The translations under genes and the position numbers were made by a program. From positions 1-58,340 of the forward strand of contig JAYEJB010000071.1 in assembly GCA_034716415.1 (NCBI GenBank): a DNA stretch of 58,340 nt. The letters are read 5' to 3'. Below, in pieces: positions 12,391 to 54,262 of the stretch. A model generated the notes under the pieces. That model was given only the letters and a program-made list of their open reading frames with translations, ran no database searches and was not told where the DNA came from. Numbering within the stretch: position 1 is the stretch's first letter; each line of letters begins with the position of its first letter. The stretch is from Patescibacteria group bacterium (GTDB taxonomy: Bacteria > Patescibacteriota > Patescibacteriia > SG8-24).

Positions 12391-13851
12391 ATGCCTGAAG
12401 AGAGAATTCCACCGCAGAATATCGACGCGGAACAATCGTTACTCGGCGCCTTGCTTATAGACAAGGAAGCCTTGCTTAATGTCGCCGATCTGGTGCGTCC
12501 GGAAGATTTCTACCGGCAGGCGCACACGGACATCTTCTGCACGATGCTCGAACTGCACGGCAAGCGCGAGCCGATCGACATGACGACCTTACCGAACAGG
12601 ATGGACGAATTGAAACTTCTGGAAGGGGCCGGCGGCCGCACGTATCTGACCGAACTGTCGGCCATGGTCGCGACCGCGGCGCACGTTGTACACTACGCCG
12701 ACATCATCCAGAAGAAGTCCACCCGGCGCAGGATGCTGGCCGCCGCGGGAGAGATCATCTCCCTGGCGCACGAGGAGACCGAGGATGTGGACGGCCTCCT
12801 GGACGATGCCGAACAGAGACTGTCCAACGTCTCGAAGAGAAACCTGAAAACCTCGTTCACGCCGATCAAGGAGGCGCTCGACAATGCGTTCGAGCGCATC
12901 GATGACCTGCACAAACAGGACGGAAAGATGCGCGGCGTACCGACCGGCTACCGGGACCTCGATTCCCTCTTAGCCGGACTGCAGCGCTCGGACCTGGTAA
13001 TCCTCGCCGCGCGTCCGTCGGTCGGTAAGACCAGTTTCGCGCTGGACATCGCCAGGAACGCGGCAGTCATCGGCAAAATGCCGGTCGGACTCTTTTCGCT
13101 CGAGATGTCAAAGGAGCAGCTCGTAGACCGCATGCTTTGCGCGGAAGCGGGTGTCGACCTGTGGCGCATGCGCACCGGACAACTCAAGGACTCCGGCGAT
13201 GACAGCGATTTCTCGCGTATCGGCCACGCCCTGGGCAAACTGTCCGAAGCGCCGATCTTCATCGATGATACGGCGAACGTCAACGTCATGGAAATCCGCA
13301 CCAAAGCGCGCCGCCTGCAGAGCGAACACGGGCTCGGCCTGCTGGTCATCGACTATCTGCAGCTGATGGAATCGCGCCGCACCCGGGCGAGCGACAACAG
13401 GACGCAGGAAGTCGCGGAGATCACGCGTGCCCTGAAGGGTATCGCGCGCGAACTGGACATTCCGGTGCTGGCGTTGTCGCAGCTGTCGCGTCTCACCGAA
13501 CAGTCCAAACCTGCCATCCCGAAACTGTCGCATTTACGTGAGTCCGGTTCCATCGAACAGGACGCGGATGTGGTGCTGTTCCTGTATCGCAAAGCCACGG
13601 ACAAGAACTATAAGCTGGAGGAGATTCCGCTCGACGAAAGGTATACCGCGGAAGTGCACGTGGCCAAGCACCGCAACGGCCCATGCGGAGTAGTCAAGAT
13701 GTTCTTCGACGAAGCACGCGTCAGTTTCCGCGACCTCGACCGAAAGCACGCACCGAGCACTCCGCCACCGGAACACGGTCAGCAGGCGACTCCGGTGCAC
13801 GCGGCGATGCCGGTGCAGGGAGCACCGAAAGATAATGAGCCGAAGTTCTGA
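12391..13851 (+). CDS. dnaB: Replicative DNA helicase
   Basis: Motifs PPQNIDAEQSLLG, AARPSVGKT, FSLEMS, IDYLQLM, LSQLSR, LRESGSIEQDAD, AKHRNGP; no intein seen. Confidence 0.98.
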   Translation: MPEERIPPQNIDAEQSLLGALLIDKEALLNVADLVRPEDFYRQAHTDIFCTMLELHGKREPIDMTTLPNRMDELKLLEGAGGRTYLTELSAMVATAAHVVHYADIIQKKSTRRRMLAAAGEIISLAHEETEDVDGLLDDAEQRLSNVSKRNLKTSFTPIKEALDNAFERIDDLHKQDGKMRGVPTGYRDLDSLLAGLQRSDLVILAARPSVGKTSFALDIARNAAVIGKMPVGLFSLEMSKEQLVDRMLCAEAGVDLWRMRTGQLKDSGDDSDFSRIGHALGKLSEAPIFIDDTANVNVMEIRTKARRLQSEHGLGLLVIDYLQLMESRRTRASDNRTQEVAEITRALKGIARELDIPVLALSQLSRLTEQSKPAIPKLSHLRESGSIEQDADVVLFLYRKATDKNYKLEEIPLDERYTAEVHVAKHRNGPCGVVKMFFDEARVSFRDLDRKHAPSTPPPEHGQQATPVHAAMPVQGAPKDNEPKF

Positions 13852-13883
13852 CCGAAGCCTAAAAGCTGAAAAGCTAATAGGAT

Positions 13884-13977
13884 GATGTCTTATGCACAGT
13901 TTGGGGAAAAAACAGGCTGCCTGTTTCCCGCAGGAAACAGACTGTCTGTGTTTTCCCCAAACTGTGCATAAGACATC
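13884..13977. repeat. Family-A 94-bp palindromic element
   Basis: GATGTCTTATGCACAGTTTGGGG...CCCCAAACTGTGCATAAGACATC with internal AAACAGGCTGCCTGTTT. Confidence 0.92.
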
Positions 13978-14045
13978 TACCTAACTATATATAATATATA
14001 ATTTGAAATTCTTTTAAGCTTTTGAACTGTTAAGCTCAAGAAAAT

Positions 14046-14339
14046 ATGTTCAACAAACTCAAGCAGGTAAAAGACATGCGCGACAAGGCCAAGAAGCTCC
14101 AGAATATGCTTTCCGAGGAGAGCGTGGAGGCGAGCGCCGCGTGGGGCAAGGTCAAAGTCGTGATGGATGGCAATCAATCCGTGCAGTCGGTAGAAATCGA
14201 CCCGGAGATGCTTTCGGACAAGCGGAAACTAGAGGAGGCGATGAAAGAGGTCTACAACGACGCAGTCAAGAAAGCGCAAAAAAAAATGGTCGACAAGATG
14301 CGTAAGAGCGGCGACCTGAACATTCCGGGGTTGACTTAA
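14046..14339 (+). CDS. ybaB: YbaB/EbfC nucleoid-associated protein
   Basis: 97 aa; Q..LSEESVEAS, VKVVMDGNQ, VEIDPE; upstream of recR. Confidence 0.92.
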   Translation: MFNKLKQVKDMRDKAKKLQNMLSEESVEASAAWGKVKVVMDGNQSVQSVEIDPEMLSDKRKLEEAMKEVYNDAVKKAQKKMVDKMRKSGDLNIPGLT

Positions 14340-14342
14340 AAT

Positions 14343-14442
14343 TTTGTCATTGCGAGGAGTGAAGCGACGCGGCAACCCCGTACGGACAGCAATAACCACC
14401 GGGATTGCCGCGGTCGCCTGCGGGCTCCCTCGCAATGACAAA
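14343..14442. repeat. Family-B REP-like palindrome (TGTCATTGCGAG...CTCGCAATGACA)
   Basis: Terminal inverted repeats shared with copies at 24849, 38274 and 41159. Confidence 0.9.
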
Positions 14443-14449
14443 TATTGAA

Positions 14450-14890
14450 ATGCATAACTTCCCCGAACCGATAGAGCGGCTCATCGAGGATCTCTGCCCC
14501 TCCTGCCCCTTCTCCCACCCCCGCTCCTCCCCGCCCAACAATGACATGAGATAAATGCGTGATTTTCCAGAACAAATCAAGAGACTTATCGAGGAGCTCG
14601 GCCCTTCGACTCCGCTCAGGACCTCCCCGCCCAACAATGACATGAGATAAATGCGTGATTTTCCAGAACCAATCAAGAGACTCATCGAGGAGCTCGGCCC
14701 TTCGACTCCGCTCAGGACCTCCCCGCCCAACAATGACATGAGATAAATGCGTGATTTTCCAGAACCAATCAAGAGACTCATCGAGGAGCTCGGCCCTTCG
14801 ACTCCGCTCAGGACCTCCCCGCCCAACAATGACATGAGATAAATGCGTGATTTTCCAGAACCAATCAAGAGACTTATCGAGGAGCTCGGC
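14450..14890 (+). repeat. Tandem array duplicating the recR start region (3 x 96-bp units plus one 105-bp diverged unit)
   Basis: ATGs at 14450, 14555, 14651, 14747 and 14843, each later ATG directly preceded by TAA; a 78-nt segment is repeated four times, separated by CCTTCGACTCCGCTCAGG. Confidence 0.95.
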
Positions 14891-15469
14891 AGACTGCCTG
14901 GTGTCGGCCTGAAGACGGCCGAACGCTATGCTTTCGCGCTACTGAAACGCCGCGGCGAGGACAGGGAGCGCCTGGCGAACTCGATACTCGACATCGGCGG
15001 GTCGTTGAGCACCTGCTCGGTCTGCGGTAACTACACGGAAAAGGACCCGTGCCCCATCTGTTCGGACGCGCGGCGCGAACGCGCGTTCGTCTGCGTGGTC
15101 GCCACGGAACAGGACCTACTGGCCGTGGAACGCACCGGAGAGTTCGCCGGCCTGTATCACGTGCTGGGTGGAGTGCTGTCCCCCGCCGACGGTATCACGC
15201 CGAATGAACTCAACGTCCGGGAACTGCAGTCGCGTGTGACGCGGGACGCACTCGAAGAGATCATCCTCGCGTTCGACCACACCATCGAAGGCGAATCGAC
15301 CATGATGTACCTGACGCGCGTGCTCCGACCGTCCGGCATCCGGGTGACGCGCCTGGCGCGCGGCCTGCCGACCGGCAGTGAAGTCGGATACGCCGACGAA
15401 GTGACTTTGTCGGACGCGTTGCGCGGCCGACGGGAAATAGCGAAAAAACGCGAGACCACAAAAGCATAG
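14843..15469 (+). CDS. recR: Recombination mediator RecR
   Basis: LPGVGLKTAER, CSVCGN..CPIC zinc finger, YHVLGG, Toprim EEIILA, TRLARGLP.G. Confidence 0.97.
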   Translation: MRDFPEPIKRLIEELGRLPGVGLKTAERYAFALLKRRGEDRERLANSILDIGGSLSTCSVCGNYTEKDPCPICSDARRERAFVCVVATEQDLLAVERTGEFAGLYHVLGGVLSPADGITPNELNVRELQSRVTRDALEEIILAFDHTIEGESTMMYLTRVLRPSGIRVTRLARGLPTGSEVGYADEVTLSDALRGRREIAKKRETTKA

Positions 15470-15489
15470 GATATATAGAAAAAACGCCG

Positions 15490-15981
15490 TCATTCCGACG
15501 ACGTTTTCGGTTGCTGTTCCTCAAGCCGTAATATCATCGGCCTTCCGTTTCCGGAGTCTATGGCGACGGCCAACACCTTAAGGTCGATGAGGTCCATGCC
15601 CGACAAGGCTTCCTGCACCTCGGCGGGCAACACGCCATGACCGAGACAGACATTATTCACCAGCGTCCTGATCTGGCACAGGGATTCCGTCGCGGACCAG
15701 AGGATTTCCTCTCGAACCATCCGCTCGGCCATGATGTCAGACACGCGCTGGAGCATCCTTTCGGTCACCAGTCGCCTGTTCGCCACTCCCAGCCGTATCA
15801 GGATCTGACAGCAGAAGTTCGTTCCATCATGGGTCCGGAACGAGACCGTAAACGTCGATTCGATGCGATCAACCGGAACGCATGGCACCTCGACCGAACT
15901 CCGATACGGAGGTCCGACGATCGACTCATTCCACGACAATCTCCTGTTTCTTCTTCGTTTCCTTCGCGACATTCTGACCAC
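15490..15981 (-). CDS. Hypothetical protein (~160 aa)
   Basis: ORF fills the gap between recR and the protease gene; start uncertain. Confidence 0.55.
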   Translation of the reverse strand: MVRMSRRKRRRNRRLSWNESIVGPPYRSSVEVPCVPVDRIESTFTVSFRTHDGTNFCCQILIRLGVANRRLVTERMLQRVSDIMAERMVREEILWSATESLCQIRTLVNNVCLGHGVLPAEVQEALSGMDLIDLKVLAVAIDSGNGRPMILRLEEQQPKTSSE

Positions 15982-18827: not shown

Positions 18828-18918
18828 TGTTTTGTCCACAGCTTGGCAAGAAAACACAGGCGGTCTGTTTCGCACCGAAACAGGCTGCCTGTTTTTCTGC
18901 CAAGCTGTGGACAAAACA
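18828..18918. repeat. Family-A variant palindrome (91 bp)
   Basis: TGTTTTGTCCACAGCTTGGCA...TGCCAAGCTGTGGACAAAACA with the same internal AAACAGGCTGCCTGTTT module. Confidence 0.85.
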
Positions 18919-24848: not shown

Positions 24849-24956
24849 TTGTCATTGCGAGCGAACGCGCCTGCCTGCCCCTGCCTGCCGGCAGGCAGGG
24901 GCAGGCAGGAAGCAATCCCGACGGGATTGCCGCGGCCTTCGGCCTCGCAATGACAA
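24849..24956. repeat. Family-B palindrome carrying a 40-bp nested insertion
   Basis: TGTCATTGCGAG...CTCGCAATGACA; 24870-24909 is the 20-mer CCTGCCTGCCGGCAGGCAGG inserted into the centre of a second copy of itself. Confidence 0.9.
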
Positions 24957-25135
24957 GAAAAATGAGATTCCGCAATTCCCACCATAATCCCTCAAGCCAG
25001 GCTTGAAGCCTGGCTTGAAATAATTAAGAGGGTGACTCCTCAGCTTCAACAAAAAAACGCCCCCTGGGCGCCATTTCTTCTCCCGCTTTTCCCGCTTCTG
25101 CCCCTTCCCTGCCTGCCGGCAGGCAGGTCCCGCTA

Positions 25136-28658: not shown

Positions 28659-29987
28659 CTAGGAGCGGTTGGGCTTGTGGGAGGACCCCCTGGTCCGCCG
28701 CAGCATTCGCCTCTTTCTGTGATAGCTAATCGCGAACCGATGAGCCTCGTCACGAACATGCTGTAACAACGGCTTGAACGCGTAGGTCAGCCGAGCCAGT
28801 TCGTTATCCTTCTTATCATACACCAGCTCGTCCTGCTTGCGATCGAAACCCTTGGCGATACCGACCAGCGGGATGTTAAGTCCGTTATCTTCAAGAACGC
28901 GCTTGGCGACATTTAACTGCCCTCTGCCTCCATCAATAAGAATAAGATCCGGCAATCGCCAACTTTCTCGCTTTCTCGCTCTTTCGCTCTCTTGCCCCTT
29001 CTCCCGCTTCTGCCCCTTCTGCCCCTTCACGCGCGCAAACCTCCTCCGCAACATCTCTTCAAGCATGGCGGTATCATTAGAACCCACCACCGTCTTGATC
29101 CTAAACTTGCGATACGCCGACTTCTTCGGCCGGCCATCCTCAAAGACGACCATACTACCGACCGCGTCCTGCCCGCTGATGTTTGATATATCGTATCCTT
29201 CGACGCGACCGAACACGTCGATGAACTGCTGCAGCTCCGCGTCGTCACGTTTCATGATCGCCATATCGCGGATGTGTTCGAGCGCCCAAAGACGGTCACG
29301 GTACGATGCCGCCACTTCGAAATCCTTACGCTCGGCCGCGGCTTTCATGTTGCGCTTCAACGATCGCACCACCTCCCCCCTCTTCCCGTCGAAGTAACGC
29401 ATCAACCCGCGGATGATGACCTTGTAGTCGCGTGATGAGATGTTCCCCGTGCAGACGCCGGCGCACTGACCGAGATGCACATAAAAACACGGACGACCGC
29501 GGTTCGGTTTGCAGGTCGACCATGGGAACGCCTTGCGCAAGGCATCGAGCGACGCCTGCACCGCACCGGTCGACTTGAACGGGCCGAACGTCTTCAGGAA
29601 CCGTTTCTTCGACGTGCGCACCAGTTCATGTTCACGGATGAGCACCGGACGCGGATAATCTTCGCGCGTAAACGCCAGGTAGACCCGGCTCTTGTCGTCC
29701 TTGTCGCGGACGTTGTACGGCGGCTGGAGTTTCTTGATGTTCTTCGCCTCGAGAATGAGCGCCTCGACCGCGGTCGGTGTCTCCTCCCAGTCGATCTCCC
29801 GGATCTTCTTCACCATCTGCGCGATGCGCGCGTCCGCCGGTCGCGTGAAGTAGCTCGAAACACGCGTGCGTAAGGATGTCGCCTTACCCACGTACATTAT
29901 CTTGCCTGCCGCATCCTTCATGAAATACACCCCTGGCCGCGGCGGCAGTTCATCCTTCTTCAGTTTTACGTTCTCCGGAATCGCCAT
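28659..29987 (-). CDS. uvrC: Excinuclease ABC subunit C (no C-terminal HhH domain)
   Basis: PGVY..YVGKA GIY-YIG, UVR domain, EGYDISN, PDLILIDGGRGQ, RDEAHRFA. Confidence 0.92.
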   Translation of the reverse strand: MAIPENVKLKKDELPPRPGVYFMKDAAGKIMYVGKATSLRTRVSSYFTRPADARIAQMVKKIREIDWEETPTAVEALILEAKNIKKLQPPYNVRDKDDKSRVYLAFTREDYPRPVLIREHELVRTSKKRFLKTFGPFKSTGAVQASLDALRKAFPWSTCKPNRGRPCFYVHLGQCAGVCTGNISSRDYKVIIRGLMRYFDGKRGEVVRSLKRNMKAAAERKDFEVAASYRDRLWALEHIRDMAIMKRDDAELQQFIDVFGRVEGYDISNISGQDAVGSMVVFEDGRPKKSAYRKFRIKTVVGSNDTAMLEEMLRRRFARVKGQKGQKREKGQESERARKRESWRLPDLILIDGGRGQLNVAKRVLEDNGLNIPLVGIAKGFDRKQDELVYDKKDNELARLTYAFKPLLQHVRDEAHRFAISYHRKRRMLRRTRGSSHKPNRS

Positions 29988-30546: not shown

Positions 30547-30656
30547 CACAACCGCTCTTGGTAGCGTCCCCAACTGACCGCACTGCGGTCTTTTTTTATA
30601 CAATGTAGCCCTTCGACTCCGCCACGCTCCGCTCAGGGATTATTTATTTATGAGAT

Positions 30657-30750
30657 GATGTCTTATGCACAGTTTGGGACAAAAACAGGCAGCCTGTTTC
30701 TCGCAAGAAACAGACTGCCTGTTTTTGTCCCAAACTGTGTATAAGACATC
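30657..30750. repeat. Family-A 94-bp palindromic element
   Basis: GATGTCTTATGCACAGTTTGGGAC...GTCCCAAACTGTGTATAAGACATC. Confidence 0.92.
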
Positions 30751-30924
30751 TACTGTTTACTTCAAAAAAATAGTGCCTGAGCTTAAAATTTTGGGGACTG
30801 TCCCCGATAAGACTGGCTTGGGGACACTTCTCAAGATTAAAACTTCTGAACAAGCCTTGCCTGTTCCGCTCCCATGCGATATCATTCCCCGCGTCATATC
30901 AATAATAATCATCTCACTTACTAT

Positions 30925-34112: not shown

Positions 34113-34220
34113 CCCCCAAAGTGCCTGTCACCCTCTGCCCCCAAAGTGCCTGTCACCCTCTGCCCCCAAAGTGCCTGTCACCCTCTGCCCCCAAAGTGCC
34201 TGTCACCCTCTGCCCCCAAA
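34113..34220. repeat. Perfect 25-bp tandem repeat, 4.3 copies
   Basis: Unit CCCCCAAAGTGCCTGTCACCCTCTG. Confidence 0.95.
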
Positions 34221-34323
34221 AGGAGCAGGCATTAACAGGCTGCGGCACGGCGGCATCGGGGTTGACAATAAGGCTAAAATATGCTATCCTGTAGAAAGGT
34301 TCTTTACGGGAAAGGAGGTATCT

Positions 34324-34854: not shown

Positions 34855-34984
34855 CTCACGCTCCCCACTCGGGCACGGACCACCAACACACTACGGTCTG
34901 TGCCCATTTTTTATCCACAAAAATAGTCAGGAAGCACCGAGTAGCTCTACCTGACACTTTCTGAGTGTTTTTGTGGATACGGCA

Positions 34985-35080
34985 GATGTCTTATGCGCAG
35001 TTTGGGACAAAAACAGGCAGCCTATTTCCCGCAGGAAACAGACTGTCTGTGCTTTTGTCCCAAACTGTGCATAAGACATC
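34985..35080. repeat. Family-A palindromic element (96 bp)
   Basis: GATGTCTTATGCGCAGTTTGGGAC...GTCCCAAACTGTGCATAAGACATC. Confidence 0.92.
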
Positions 35081-35108
35081 TTTTCTTAATCTACGAAAAG
35101 ACTGCCCC

Positions 35109-38273: not shown

Positions 38274-38366
38274 TTGTCATTGCAAGGGAGGCCGCAGCCG
38301 ACCGCGACAATCCCGTCGGGAATGAACGGGATTGCTTCGTCGGCTACGGCCTCCTCGCAATGACAA
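38274..38366. repeat. Family-B REP-like palindrome
   Basis: TTGTCATTGCAAG...CTCGCAATGACAA between convergent genes. Confidence 0.88.
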
Positions 38367-38372
38367 CCATTG

Positions 38373-41158: not shown

Positions 41159-41278
41159 AACATGCTGAGGGCGGGATTGCCGCAGTCGCCTGCGGGCTCC
41201 CTCGCAATGACAAAAAAGGGTGCTTTACCCTCATTGTCATTGCGAGCGAAAGCGAAGCAATCCCGCCCTCAGCATGTT
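41159..41278. repeat. Composite family-B element with halves in inverted order and a 22-bp perfect outer inverted repeat
   Basis: AACATGCTGAGGGCGGGATTGC...GCAATCCCGCCCTCAGCATGTT enclosing CTCGCAATGACA then TGTCATTGCGAG. Confidence 0.88.
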
Positions 41279-44451: not shown

Positions 44452-44664
44452 ATTCTCTATTTAAGTATCCGTCATTGTAGCAAGGGGAAGGTAAAAAAGT
44501 CTAAAAGCTTATTATATTTCCTACAGCTTTTCAGCTTTCTATCCCGCCCCGTCTTGCCTGTCCTGAGCCACGTCGAAGGGCCCCGTTTTTCTGCTCTTCC
44601 CGCTAGCCCGACATCCGCCGGGCGGTTCCCGCTTCTCCCGCTTCTGCCCCTTCTCCCACTCCCC

Positions 44665-47385
44665 CTACGCCCACGAATGCGGGATGTATCCCCGACGCGC
44701 GAACACCTTATATATCTCAACCACAAACAGTACCGAGCTCGTCACTACGGCGATCAACAGCCACTCATACCAGCCGAGCGGTGCGGTGCGGAAGACTTTC
44801 TGTAACGGCGGAAGATACAACACGGCGAACTGCAGTCCCAGCGACGCCACCACCGACCAGAACACGTACATGTTCGTGAACAGTCCGATCTTGAAGAGCG
44901 ACTCCTTGATGGATCTCATGTTGAAGACGTTCCAGAGCTGGAACACCGCCATGGTGGTAAAGGCGACGGAGCGCGCGTAGGTCAGATCCCCCCTGTCGAG
45001 CGCCCACTTGAACAGGAGCAACGTGCCGACGGCCATCAGCACACTCGTGATGACGGTCAGAAGCAAGACGTTCTTGGAGAGGATCGGTGTCTTGCTACAG
45101 CGCGGCGATTCTTTCAGGACGCCGCCACGCCGTTTTTCGGTGGCGAGCGCGACATCCGGAAAACCGTCCGTCACCAGATTCATCCAAAGTATCTGCGCGG
45201 GCAACAACGGCAGCGGAAAACGCAAAGCCATGCTGGCGAGAATGGTCACGACCTCGCCGATATTGGTCATGAACAGATAGGCGACGGTCTGCTTGACGTT
45301 GCGGAAGATGATCCTCCCCTCCTCTATCGCGCCGATGATGGACACGAAATTATCGTCGGCGAGCACCATATCCGCGACATCCTTCGATACGTCGGTGCCG
45401 GTGATACCCATCGAGATGCCGATCGCCGCGCGTTTCAACGCGGGCGCGTCGTTCACGCCGTCGCCAGTCATGGCCACGGTATGCCCCCGGTCCTGTAATC
45501 GGTCTACGACGCGCAGTTTGGTATCAGGCGACACCCGCGCGAAAATTACGACGTCGTCCAGCGCACGGTCGAATTCCGCGTCGTTCATATCGCGTATATC
45601 CGCGTCCGTGTATACACCCTTGATCTCACCCCGTTCGTTCCGACTGATGATGCCTACCTCGCGGGCGATGGCCAGGGCCGTGGCCTTCTGATCCCCTGTC
45701 GCCATGATGATGCGCACCCCCGCGCTTCTGGCATCCTCGACGGCGTCGGCTACGCCCGCGCGCGGCGGATCTATCATCCCGATGAGGCCCAGGAACGAAA
45801 GATCGCTGACGTCCTTGTCGCCCAGGCTGTCCTGTTTCAGATCCGCTTCCCTATACGCGACAGCAATGACGCGCATGGCGCCGGCGGCCATGCCTTCATT
45901 GGCCGAACTGAGACAGGCCATGTCGTCAGGCACCAGACATTGACTTCCGTGTTCGGCGACGATATATGAACTGCGTCCGGACAGGACCTCGAACGCGCCG
46001 ACCGTAAAGACATGACGCATGACATTACCGCGCAGGTCGGTGCTCTCCACCAACATCGCCCGATACATCCTCGATGAACTGAACGGAATCTCGTCGATGA
46101 CGCGATACTCGCTCATCATCTCCTGTTTGTCGAATCCGGCCTTCGCTCCCGCGACCACCATCGCCCCTTCGGTCGGATCGCCGATGACCGCGGCGCGTCC
46201 GTCCTTCCTCACGAGCCGCGCCTTGTTGCAGACCGTGGCCACCTTGAGGAGCAGGTTGAGTTGTGCATTCTCGGCCGGGCGGACCTTCTTCTTCTCCATG
46301 TAGAAATCTCCTCCCGGCTCCCAACCCTCGCCGGTCACGCGATAGCTCAGGCAAGACGTGGCGATCTCACGCACCGTCATCTTGTTCTCGGTGAGCGTGC
46401 CGGTCTTGTCGGTACAGATGACGTCCGCGACACCCAACGTCTCGACAGAGGGCACGTGCCGAATGATGGCGTTGCGTTTGGCCATCCGCCGCACGCCGAT
46501 CGCCAAGACGACCGCCAGCACCGCCGGAAGACCCTCCGGAATCACCGACACGACGAGCGCGACGGCGAAAAAGAACATCTCCGATACGGGCGTACCGCGC
46601 AAGTAGCCGAAGACGAAGACGATCATCGCCAAAACTATCGAAACGATACCCAAAGTCTGACCGAGCGAATCTATCCTGATCTCGAGCGGAGCCTTCTCGT
46701 GCTCGATATCCTTGAGCGAAGAGGCGATACTGCCGAACTGCGTCTTCAGACCGGTCCCCGCAATGACGGCACGGCATGTCCCAGCGACGACCGAGGTGCC
46801 CATCCAGATCATGTCGGTCCTGTCGGGGATTCCGATGTCAGTCGCGACCGGGTCGGATGATTTCGAGACCGCCGACGATTCGCCTGTAAGCGCGGCCTCG
46901 TCGGTGCGCAGATCCTTACTTGAGATCAACCTGGCATCGGCCGGAACCTTGTCCCCCTCCTCGAGCATAATGATATCGCCCGGCACCAAGAGCGCCGAAT
47001 CGAAACGATGCGCCTCTCCGTCGCGCATCACGGTCGCTTCGAAGACGACCATCTGCCGCAACTTCTCGATAGCGCCCTCCGCCTTGCGCTCCTGCCAAAA
47101 ACCGAATCCCGCGTCGATGAACACCGCGAGCAGGATGCCATAGGCGTCATTAGGATGACCGGAAGCGAAAGATACGGCCGCCGCAATGAACAGTACATAC
47201 GTCAGCCGGCTATGGAATTGACTCAACACTAACCACAGCAGACTCTTCTTCTTCCCTTCGGGTAGCTCGTTGCGACCGTATTCGTCCAGACGGACGGCCG
47301 CCTCCTCCGAAGACAGTCCGCCGTCGACATCCGTCCCCAACGCGGCGATGACCTTATCGATATCTTTGTCGTGATAGCTGTTCAT
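44665..47385 (-). CDS. Type II (Ca2+-like) P-type ATPase
   Basis: TGES, PEGL, DKTGTLT, GDPTE, DPPR, TGDGVNDAPAL, MNLVTD. Confidence 0.96.
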   Translation of the reverse strand: MNSYHDKDIDKVIAALGTDVDGGLSSEEAAVRLDEYGRNELPEGKKKSLLWLVLSQFHSRLTYVLFIAAAVSFASGHPNDAYGILLAVFIDAGFGFWQERKAEGAIEKLRQMVVFEATVMRDGEAHRFDSALLVPGDIIMLEEGDKVPADARLISSKDLRTDEAALTGESSAVSKSSDPVATDIGIPDRTDMIWMGTSVVAGTCRAVIAGTGLKTQFGSIASSLKDIEHEKAPLEIRIDSLGQTLGIVSIVLAMIVFVFGYLRGTPVSEMFFFAVALVVSVIPEGLPAVLAVVLAIGVRRMAKRNAIIRHVPSVETLGVADVICTDKTGTLTENKMTVREIATSCLSYRVTGEGWEPGGDFYMEKKKVRPAENAQLNLLLKVATVCNKARLVRKDGRAAVIGDPTEGAMVVAGAKAGFDKQEMMSEYRVIDEIPFSSSRMYRAMLVESTDLRGNVMRHVFTVGAFEVLSGRSSYIVAEHGSQCLVPDDMACLSSANEGMAAGAMRVIAVAYREADLKQDSLGDKDVSDLSFLGLIGMIDPPRAGVADAVEDARSAGVRIIMATGDQKATALAIAREVGIISRNERGEIKGVYTDADIRDMNDAEFDRALDDVVIFARVSPDTKLRVVDRLQDRGHTVAMTGDGVNDAPALKRAAIGISMGITGTDVSKDVADMVLADDNFVSIIGAIEEGRIIFRNVKQTVAYLFMTNIGEVVTILASMALRFPLPLLPAQILWMNLVTDGFPDVALATEKRRGGVLKESPRCSKTPILSKNVLLLTVITSVLMAVGTLLLFKWALDRGDLTYARSVAFTTMAVFQLWNVFNMRSIKESLFKIGLFTNMYVFWSVVASLGLQFAVLYLPPLQKVFRTAPLGWYEWLLIAVVTSSVLFVVEIYKVFARRGYIPHSWA

Positions 47386-54181: not shown

Positions 54182-54262
54182 AAGGCGGGAAGAGCGGGAT
54201 AAGCGGGATAAGCGGGAAAAGAATTACTTCTCCCGCTTCTCCCGCTTCTGCCCCTTCTCCCG
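54182..54262. repeat. Inverted arms of 9-bp family-C microrepeats; one arm encodes the end of the phosphoribosyltransferase
   Basis: GCGGGATAA-like units versus CTTCTCCCG-like units. Confidence 0.85.

Follow-up and report, generated by a model that had tools for sequence, protein, structure and literature searches.

A repeated recR start in a patescibacterial genome: layout, sister-species junction and variable copy number

Upstream of recR in the window (the whole 58,340-nucleotide stretch of patescibacterial DNA analysed here), the beginning of the gene is repeated in tandem, and a sister species carries the same junction at the same site. Our comparisons establish a repeat of nearly identical young units, a junction common to two species, the gain or loss of a single unit within identical flanks, and the decay of orphaned start copies. 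As to the nature of this array, we lean, with slightly better than even confidence, towards a structural variant at the 5' end of recR whose copy number varies, and away from a dedicated device. The locus is most probably a tolerated product of recombination, and at present it gives no indication of a new mechanism of RecR regulation.

Layout of the array and its genomic setting

The local gene order is dnaB (12391-13851), ybaB (14046-14339, plus strand; 97 aa, from the ORF list and from PF02575 on the orthologues in relatives L072, L073 and L074) and the live recR (14843-15469, plus strand; 208 aa, from the ORF list and Pfam). This order is kept in relatives, and the adjacency of ybaB and recR holds in all close relatives. 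The gene product has the make-up of a RecR, with RecR_HhH, Cys4 zinc-finger, Toprim and C-terminal domains and a place beside ybaB; on this protein and its relatives, Pfam recognises PF21176, PF02132, PF13662, PF01751 and PF21175. One residue of the window protein stands apart: P23L (14909-14911) gives GVGLK in the helix-hairpin-helix motif, which reads GVGPK in all relatives and in RecR generally, and as a Logan contig also encodes GVGLK, this is no assembly error. Among the homologues P0093-P0108 there are many longer CPR RecRs, with a low-complexity C-terminal extension and a conserved ...(V/I/N)PF tail; we also checked long RecR homologues (229-266 aa) for fused duplicated N-termini, and found none.

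Tandem Repeats Finder reports a 96-nt tandem array at 14526-14890, with 3.8 copies, 98% matches and no indels. Each unit consists of recR codons 1-16 (48 nt), a filler of 18-21 nt, termed D, and a leader of 28-30 nt ending in TAA|ATG. According to the ORF list, every unit shares the reading frame of recR, the diverged older unit included, and the TAA stop of every mini-ORF in the window adjoins the next ATG without a gap. The three young units lie on the plus strand at 14555-14650, 14651-14746 and 14747-14842, are 98-100% identical to one another, and each contains a start copy, D and the leader; each corresponds to a mini-ORF of 31 aa reading MRDFPE[Q/P]IKRLIEELGPSTPLRTSPPNNDMR. The start copy of unit 1 has an A at 14574, which produces P7Q, and a T at 14587, that of unit 2 has a C at 14683, and unit 3 is identical in sequence to unit 2. 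Ahead of them is an old unit of 105 nt (14450-14554, plus strand), composed of an orphan start X' (14450-14497), a C/T-rich 9-mer filler (14498-14525) and a leader (14526-14554, ending in TAA) that is identical to the leaders of the younger units. Its in-frame ORF opens with the Met at 14450, begins MHNFPEPIERLIEDLC, encodes 34 aa and stops at 14552-14554. The architecture described in the earlier note, an array of start copies and D with three 31-aa ORFs and an older one of 34 aa, all in frame and with stops abutting the ATGs, is therefore borne out by both the repeat finder and the ORF list, and each detail of that note that we checked proved accurate.

The filler D (CCTTCGACTCCGCTCAGG) occurs in three exact copies, all on the plus strand (14603-14620, 14699-14716 and 14795-14812), and in one copy with three mismatches on the minus strand at 44562-44579, which is intergenic and lies beside a C/T-rich 9-mer array; 0.07 would be expected by chance. 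A second intergenic relative, at 30610-30637 on the plus strand, has a centre 10 nt longer (CCTTCGACTCCGCCACGCTCCGCTCAGG), so that the two relatives of D announced near 30610 and 44562 are both to be found. On a Logan contig from another locus or organism of the brine metagenome X1, a hairpin has D as one arm and the reverse complement of D as the other, which implies that the D of the array is half of a palindromic element, placed exactly at the rearrangement junction. The leader, for its part, starts with a 9-mer remnant (CCTCCCCGCC in the window, CCTTCTCGCC in the sister-species contig L034), and the old-unit filler is itself a C/T-rich 9-mer array. Neither the leader nor the 96-nt unit recurs outside recR within the 58-kb window, and a family dispersed over many loci was likewise not found within it; among the loci compared we found no donor-type allele, in which a complete D palindrome would precede recR. 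Two further resemblances were set aside: homology of the old-unit C/T-rich filler to D is not convincing, and D plus leader has only marginal similarity (p ~0.04) to the right arm of the upstream hairpin.

That hairpin belongs to a landscape in which intergenic regions are mosaics of GTCATTGCGAGG hairpins, ~100-nt palindromes, C/T-rich 9-mer arrays (CTTCTCCCG/CTTCTGCCC) and D-like motifs. It is a perfect-stem repeat, GTCATTGCGAGG...CCTCGCAATGAC, situated between ybaB and the array (14343-14443, no strand assigned; -55.5 kcal/mol and z = -7.1 on RNA folding), and further hairpins of this type lie at 24851-24946, 38274-38372 and 41172-41260. Their arms reach a word depth of 500-2600 in three brine metagenomes; as this is far above the depth of 23 for the organism, the family must be common to many co-occurring organisms. 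The near-perfect palindromes of ~100 nt, GATGTCTTATGCACAGTTTGGG...CCCAAACTGTGCATAAGACATC, are intergenic as well (1-77, 13881-13980, 18828-18918, 30654-30753 and 34982-35081), and one of them sits between dnaB and ybaB. Arrays with a 9-nt period were seen at 14490-14536, 25077-25105, 28960-29030, 44620-44665 and 54190-54262, and these sometimes pair with a purine-rich arm to form a hairpin; the ybaB-recR spacers of L072, L074 and L076 contain analogous 9-mer hairpins of different sequence (AGCTTAGGAGC-type). Finally, a perfect 25-nt tandem repeat (CCCCCAAAGTGCCTGTCACCCTCTG, ~4.5 copies) occupies intergenic positions 34113-34237, past a terminator-like hairpin, and a candidate for a duplicated start at 34171 turned out to be merely this repeat.

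Is the array real? Our check relies on Logan contigs (not reads) from one brine metagenome, run X1, in which the single-copy word depth, taken from ybaB and the recR body, is ~22-24. A 95-nt contig in which D, the leader and the ATG are joined to the first 32 nt of the start has a depth of 53.3, or ~2.3x single-copy, and the presence of this D-leader-start junction in an independent assembly at such a depth means that the repeat is real. Three exits from the start were recovered in the same run: one ending in T and followed by D (depth 13.8), one ending in C and followed by D (33.2), and one ending in T and followed by the recR body (21.5). These depths translate into ~2-2.3 D units and ~3 start copies per genome, three D units not being clear, and the copy number of the array would be 2-3, or else heterogeneous.

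The same contigs also depart from the window. None of the X1 Logan contigs links the old unit to unit 1 (14524-14560), and the A at 14574 that gives P7Q was not seen in them; the contig with the old copy has a depth of 14.3 against 23, and past 14523 continues for 44 nt in a sequence that the window lacks (TTTTCCCACATAGGCACG...). A second ybaB-like contig, aligned to 14044-14206, shows 16 differences in 163 nt (~10%) at a depth of 7, indicating that the brine sample also holds a related strain or species. Such signs would suit an artefact, in which the assembler made the repeat, or its copy number, out of a mixture of strains. We find this barely credible, however, as the independent assembly has both the D-leader-ATG junction, at more than twice single-copy depth, and three different exits from the start, and as two independent assemblies gave a like architecture in the sister species.

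A shared junction and two diverged recR alleles

The window belongs to an uncultured CPR bacterium near Candidatus Uhrbacteria. Among species-representative genomes, the best RecR matches are MAGs labelled Parcubacteria, Uhrbacteria or Patescibacteria, at 74-75% identity, and an exact-protein look-up with the window RecR returned no record. The decisive comparison is with relatives whose RecR is 84-87% identical to that of the window (L034 and L072-L076). Together, the window, L034/L072, L073, L074 and L075/L076 form a clade with a support of 98 and an unsettled internal order.

In L034, a JGI metagenome contig whose RecR is 86% identical, ybaB is followed by a hairpin, a first start copy (Xu), a filler homologous to D (CCCTTCGACAAGCTCAGGGC), a 29-nt leader, a second start copy (Xd) and the rest of recR. 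The break follows the very nucleotide of recR at which the window is broken, and here too the unit, present once, measures 96 nt. Between L034 and the window, D plus the initial 10 nt of the leader align with a score of 34, which was reached by 0 of 500 shuffles; the remaining leader is only ~55% identical, and two compensating 1-nt indels hold the L034 unit at 96 nt. The L034 mini-ORF has its stop 6 nt ahead of the ATG, and a second in-frame TAA adjoins the ATG. The L034 form recurs, with zero differences, on a Logan contig assembled from a landfill metagenome.

L072, an ENA assembly, matches L034 at every aligned position (5528/5528 nt), and exactly 96 nt are missing: its recR begins with Xu. 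With 0 copies in L072, 1 in L034 and ~2-3 in the window, the 96-nt unit has both the size (40-100 nt) and the variation between strains of a variable-number tandem repeat (VNTR). A comparison with sister genomes had been proposed in the earlier note, and it is this comparison that reveals one unit in L034, none in L072, and a single recR start in L073, L074 and L075/L076. No duplicated recR start was found in 13 more distant relatives or in the other metagenome loci examined. In L033 (RecR 67% identical), Ns mask ~2715-2815, where the spacer between ybaB and recR and the initial 8 codons of recR lie. A scan of 865 ORF starts for an upstream copy of the start returned only the recR of the window and of L034, plus an unrelated match at a Clostridium locus.

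Where, then, did the two kinds of start come from? Over their 48 nt, the old copy X' and the live start disagree at 13 sites, of which 8 are third positions, as had been counted before, and the codon changes comprise 8 synonymous and 5 non-synonymous ones. From the starts of L074 and L073 (type N3/E9), X' is separated by 5 and 6 nt respectively, as against 13 nt from the live start (type D3/K9), such that the orphan lies nearer to the relatives than to the working copy. The changes private to X' are R2H, E14D and G16C along with 1-2 synonymous ones, giving an omega of ~1. The live start, on the other hand, differs from the Xu of L034 by 6 nt, all synonymous, and from L074 at ~10 of 10 synonymous sites, with a gene-wide pS of 0.49. 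Its codons 2-12 mostly end in A or T, whereas the GC3 of recR is 0.75. Across the gene, the window recR shows a pS of 0.45-0.53 and a pN of 0.07-0.09 against four relatives, and as pN is far below pS, the live recR is under purifying selection. Measured against the consensus, Xu in L034 is free of amino-acid changes, and since it is also the working start in L072, it is the native start and not an old pseudogene.

As a neutral relic dating back to the radiation of the clade, X' should show ~15 differences from L074, and 5 are seen; a live start copied from X' at the time X' was orphaned should show ~2-4 synonymous differences from it, and 8 are seen. We infer from these expectations, in which the lineage signal is carried by 48 nt only, that both starts diverged as working starts in separate lineages and were joined later, two diverged recR alleles being incompatible with a simple copy in place. 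The synonymous bias of X' is real, and on this evidence it is the mark of selection on recR in two lineages, and not on the mini-ORF. The earlier suggestion of past protein-level selection on the old copy may consequently be kept for X' as the working recR start of another lineage, and has to be dropped for X' as a mini-ORF. A similar pattern has been described for duplicated gene ends in fungal mitochondria, where the native orphan end is nearer to relatives than the inserted end and has been read as import from another lineage (PMC3630166); our two-lineage argument follows the same logic as that applied to ends beside mobile nuclease ORFs (PMC3630166).

Origin of the array and competing explanations

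We posit that the array arose in three steps. In the first, an event of recombination or repair at a palindromic intergenic repeat would have joined codon 16 to the half-palindrome D, a leader and a full start, and would have left the previous recR start as a truncated orphan. This could have been a replacement by related foreign DNA, or an indel allele spread by homologous recombination via the block of 18-26 nt that ends the 16-codon segment (CTCATCGAGGAGCTCGGC); this block is nearly invariant in the clade, which is why an indel allele can move between relatives. In the second step, the direct start repeats would have undergone unequal crossing-over or slippage, amplifying the 96-nt unit to ~2-3 extra copies in the window lineage and deleting a unit in the sister-species strain L072; amplification and deletion as such are evident on comparing the alleles. 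In the third, the result would have been tolerated: each unit has the leader and ATG of the real recR and stops at the TAA before the next ATG, such that ribosomes would be handed on and the recR start would never be crossed out of frame. The 31-aa products would be by-products, and the orphan copies would decay neutrally. Amongst the ideas put forward in the earlier note, that of repeat insertions which duplicated and rescued the gene start comes closest to the evidence, given that D is a palindromic piece, that the sister has a module at the same site, and that the module is present in some strains and absent from others.

Several points sit uneasily with a structural variant of this kind. 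The module persists in two lineages at a dS of ~0.9, and whilst the L072 deletion shows that loss occurs, direct repeats spaced 96 nt apart should go fast, so that retention hints at selection. Persistence hints at selection for retention, for example of the imported leader, or at repeated transfer; perhaps the imported leader is kept, as it could be inseparable from the orphan by the easy slippage route. In addition, all unit lengths are multiples of three (96, 96, 105), which could mean that the frame matters. The 48 nt that carry every lineage argument, the unsettled branching within the clade, the other continuation of the X1 contig past 14523 and the failure to find a donor-type allele among the loci compared also weigh against it.

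Another possibility is that the array is the footprint of a homing-type mobile cassette. An element bounded by D hairpins, perhaps once equipped with a nuclease gene, would have entered recR at codon 16; its spare start would have saved the host gene, and its coding part would later have been lost, with D and the leader left behind. Such a cassette would account for an identical insertion point in two species, for presence or absence within flanks that are 100% identical, for an imported-looking start that adjoins a half-palindrome, and for the formation of both arms of a hairpin by D elsewhere. Nuclease ORFs carrying replacement gene ends have indeed been published (PMC3630166), and part of the population might have a longer insert, into which the Logan contig runs past 14523. 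However, the gap from orphan to live start is only 49-57 nt and contains no endonuclease or recombinase gene, and a six-frame scan of the window and all fetched loci for a free-standing GIY-YIG motif returned UvrC only. Moreover, the module is unique to recR among the 865 ORF starts, its leader is unique in the window, and L072 is more simply explained by a slippage deletion. We consider a mobile cassette possible but unlikely.

Or could the array be a translational relay, in which ribosomes terminate at TAA|ATG and re-initiate, and in which the number of units tunes RecR? The mRNA would start near the first orphan ATG or come from ybaB, and recR, without a good Shine-Dalgarno (SD) sequence, would depend on the chain. 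Translational coupling at recR would be physically plausible. All stops in the window adjoin the next ATG, and the L034 stop, although 6 nt before the ATG, is backed by a second in-frame TAA; units are multiples of three in both species; and as the recR leader is common to all units, these are translated if recR is. There are also precedents, namely ribosome-delivering short ORFs and mycobacterial interspersed repetitive units (MIRUs) coupled to start codons (PMC12548453). The gene starts of the window lend further weight to a relay: an SD-like motif is present at 12 of 45 (~1/4), and -10-like TAnnnT hexamers ending 5-13 nt before ATGs number 16 against 2.4 expected. This enrichment suggests frequent leaderless or very-short-leader mRNAs, and on a leaderless mRNA an internal ATG would need re-initiation. 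Yet in two of the three possible frames a mini-ORF would in any case meet a stop at the ATG or shortly past it (GCG TGA, in the +2 frame), which makes the in-frame arrangement weak evidence; L072 and L073-L076 express recR without units; the copy number appears unstable and not set; and a scan of 13800-15600 found no promoter-like site. On balance, we judge a relay unlikely.

A bolder scenario would combine these elements. D, leader and start would form a long-lived, horizontally moving 'spare start' cassette, kept for its recR expression signals, with tandem copies setting RecR via termination-reinitiation. We regard this as distinctly improbable; were it true, the cassette would be spreading between lineages of an Uhrbacteria-like clade through the block that ends at codon 16. 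It would then represent a self-preserving, nuclease-free rewiring of a gene start on largely SD-less, possibly leaderless mRNA, and such rewiring might be general in CPR bacteria.

Turning to what the units might encode, the orphan starts look like leftovers and not like functional peptides. The tails of the mini-ORFs differ between the species (PSTPLRTSPPNNDMR vs PSTSSGPSRHIIR), the P7Q of unit 1 hits the conserved FPEP motif, RNA structure in the unit is no more stable than in shuffles (z = +1.2), and Rfam has no family at the array, only generic hairpin noise on the neighbouring palindromes. It is on these four counts that we rejected a regulatory leader peptide or attenuator. A guide array of CRISPR or TIGR type was also discarded, the units being 98-100% identical and devoid of variable spacers, and a 173-aa ORF that stays open through the array on the minus strand is spurious, with no homologue at E <= 1 and a frame interrupted in L034. 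The dial or inhibitory peptide of the earlier note gained no support, in view of the divergent tails, P7Q, the fold, and R2H, E14D and G16C at an omega of ~1, and a 31-aa inhibitory peptide appears unlikely. Very weak, too, is the idea of decoys, whereby 31-aa products with the RecR helix alpha-1 would bind RecR in trans, at a dosage given by unit number, and disturb the N-N dimer or RecO binding: the duplicated segment does coincide almost exactly with the RecR N-terminal helix, which both a proper N-N dimer and the binding of RecO require (PMC3510498), but the helix is altered in unit 1 and in the old copy, the tails are unrelated between species, omega on the orphan branch is ~1, full-length RecR brings its own alpha-1, and relatives do without the peptides, all of which renders decoys extremely improbable.

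Related systems and implications

The recR array resembles several known systems without coinciding with any of them. Like MIRU-type VNTRs, it has tandem units of tens of nucleotides at a gene start in an operon, in a copy number that differs between strains. In MIRUs, the end of the small ORF in the unit is coupled to the downstream start codon and the host gene stays expressed (PMC12548453); here too the mini-ORFs end at a start codon, with TAA|ATG at every junction. However, MIRUs are dispersed over many loci and do not contain codons of the host gene, whereas the present array is unique to recR and is made of the first 16 recR codons, a leader and a repeat fragment.

Gene-end replacement by mobile endonucleases offers a second parallel. 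The mORFs of fungal mitochondria (Allomyces atp6; Glomus atp6/atp9/cox2/nad3), along with integrative elements that bring a spare gene end, share with recR a duplicated end, a displaced native copy that is nearer to close relatives, mostly synonymous differences, and presence/absence polymorphism at the site (PMC3630166). In contrast, the copies at recR are separated by 49-57 nt with no nuclease or integrase gene, it is the 5' end that is affected, a leader was brought along, and the module was tandemly amplified.

Leader peptides and uORFs that act by termination-reinitiation are likewise short ORFs ending at or next to the main start (TAAATG). Unlike these, the recR array has no conserved regulatory peptide, alternative RNA structures or sign of sensing, and its mini-ORFs are copies of the start of the main gene, in a number that varies. 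Rearrangements at palindromes, REPs or MITEs are reminiscent of recR in that D comes from a dispersed palindromic family, the intergenic regions are mosaic, and a half-palindrome lies at the junction; an ordinary REP or MITE insertion, however, duplicates a target of a few nt, and not a 47-nt gene start from a diverged allele. The stutter at recR has traits of MIRU-type VNTRs and traits of gene-end replacement, but no mobile enzyme.

If a structural variant of the recR 5' end is the right reading, the tiny genomes of CPR bacteria would reshuffle gene starts: a diverged copy beside a palindromic fragment would replace the start, the orphan would stay, and the unit could then stutter in copy number with the gene unharmed. 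This calls for caution in annotation, as orphan starts mimic leader peptides, and in evolutionary inference, as the synonymous-biased divergence of an orphan mimics selection. Moreover, the recR locus provides a natural series of 0, 1 and 3 units for the study of termination-reinitiation in SD-poor organisms.
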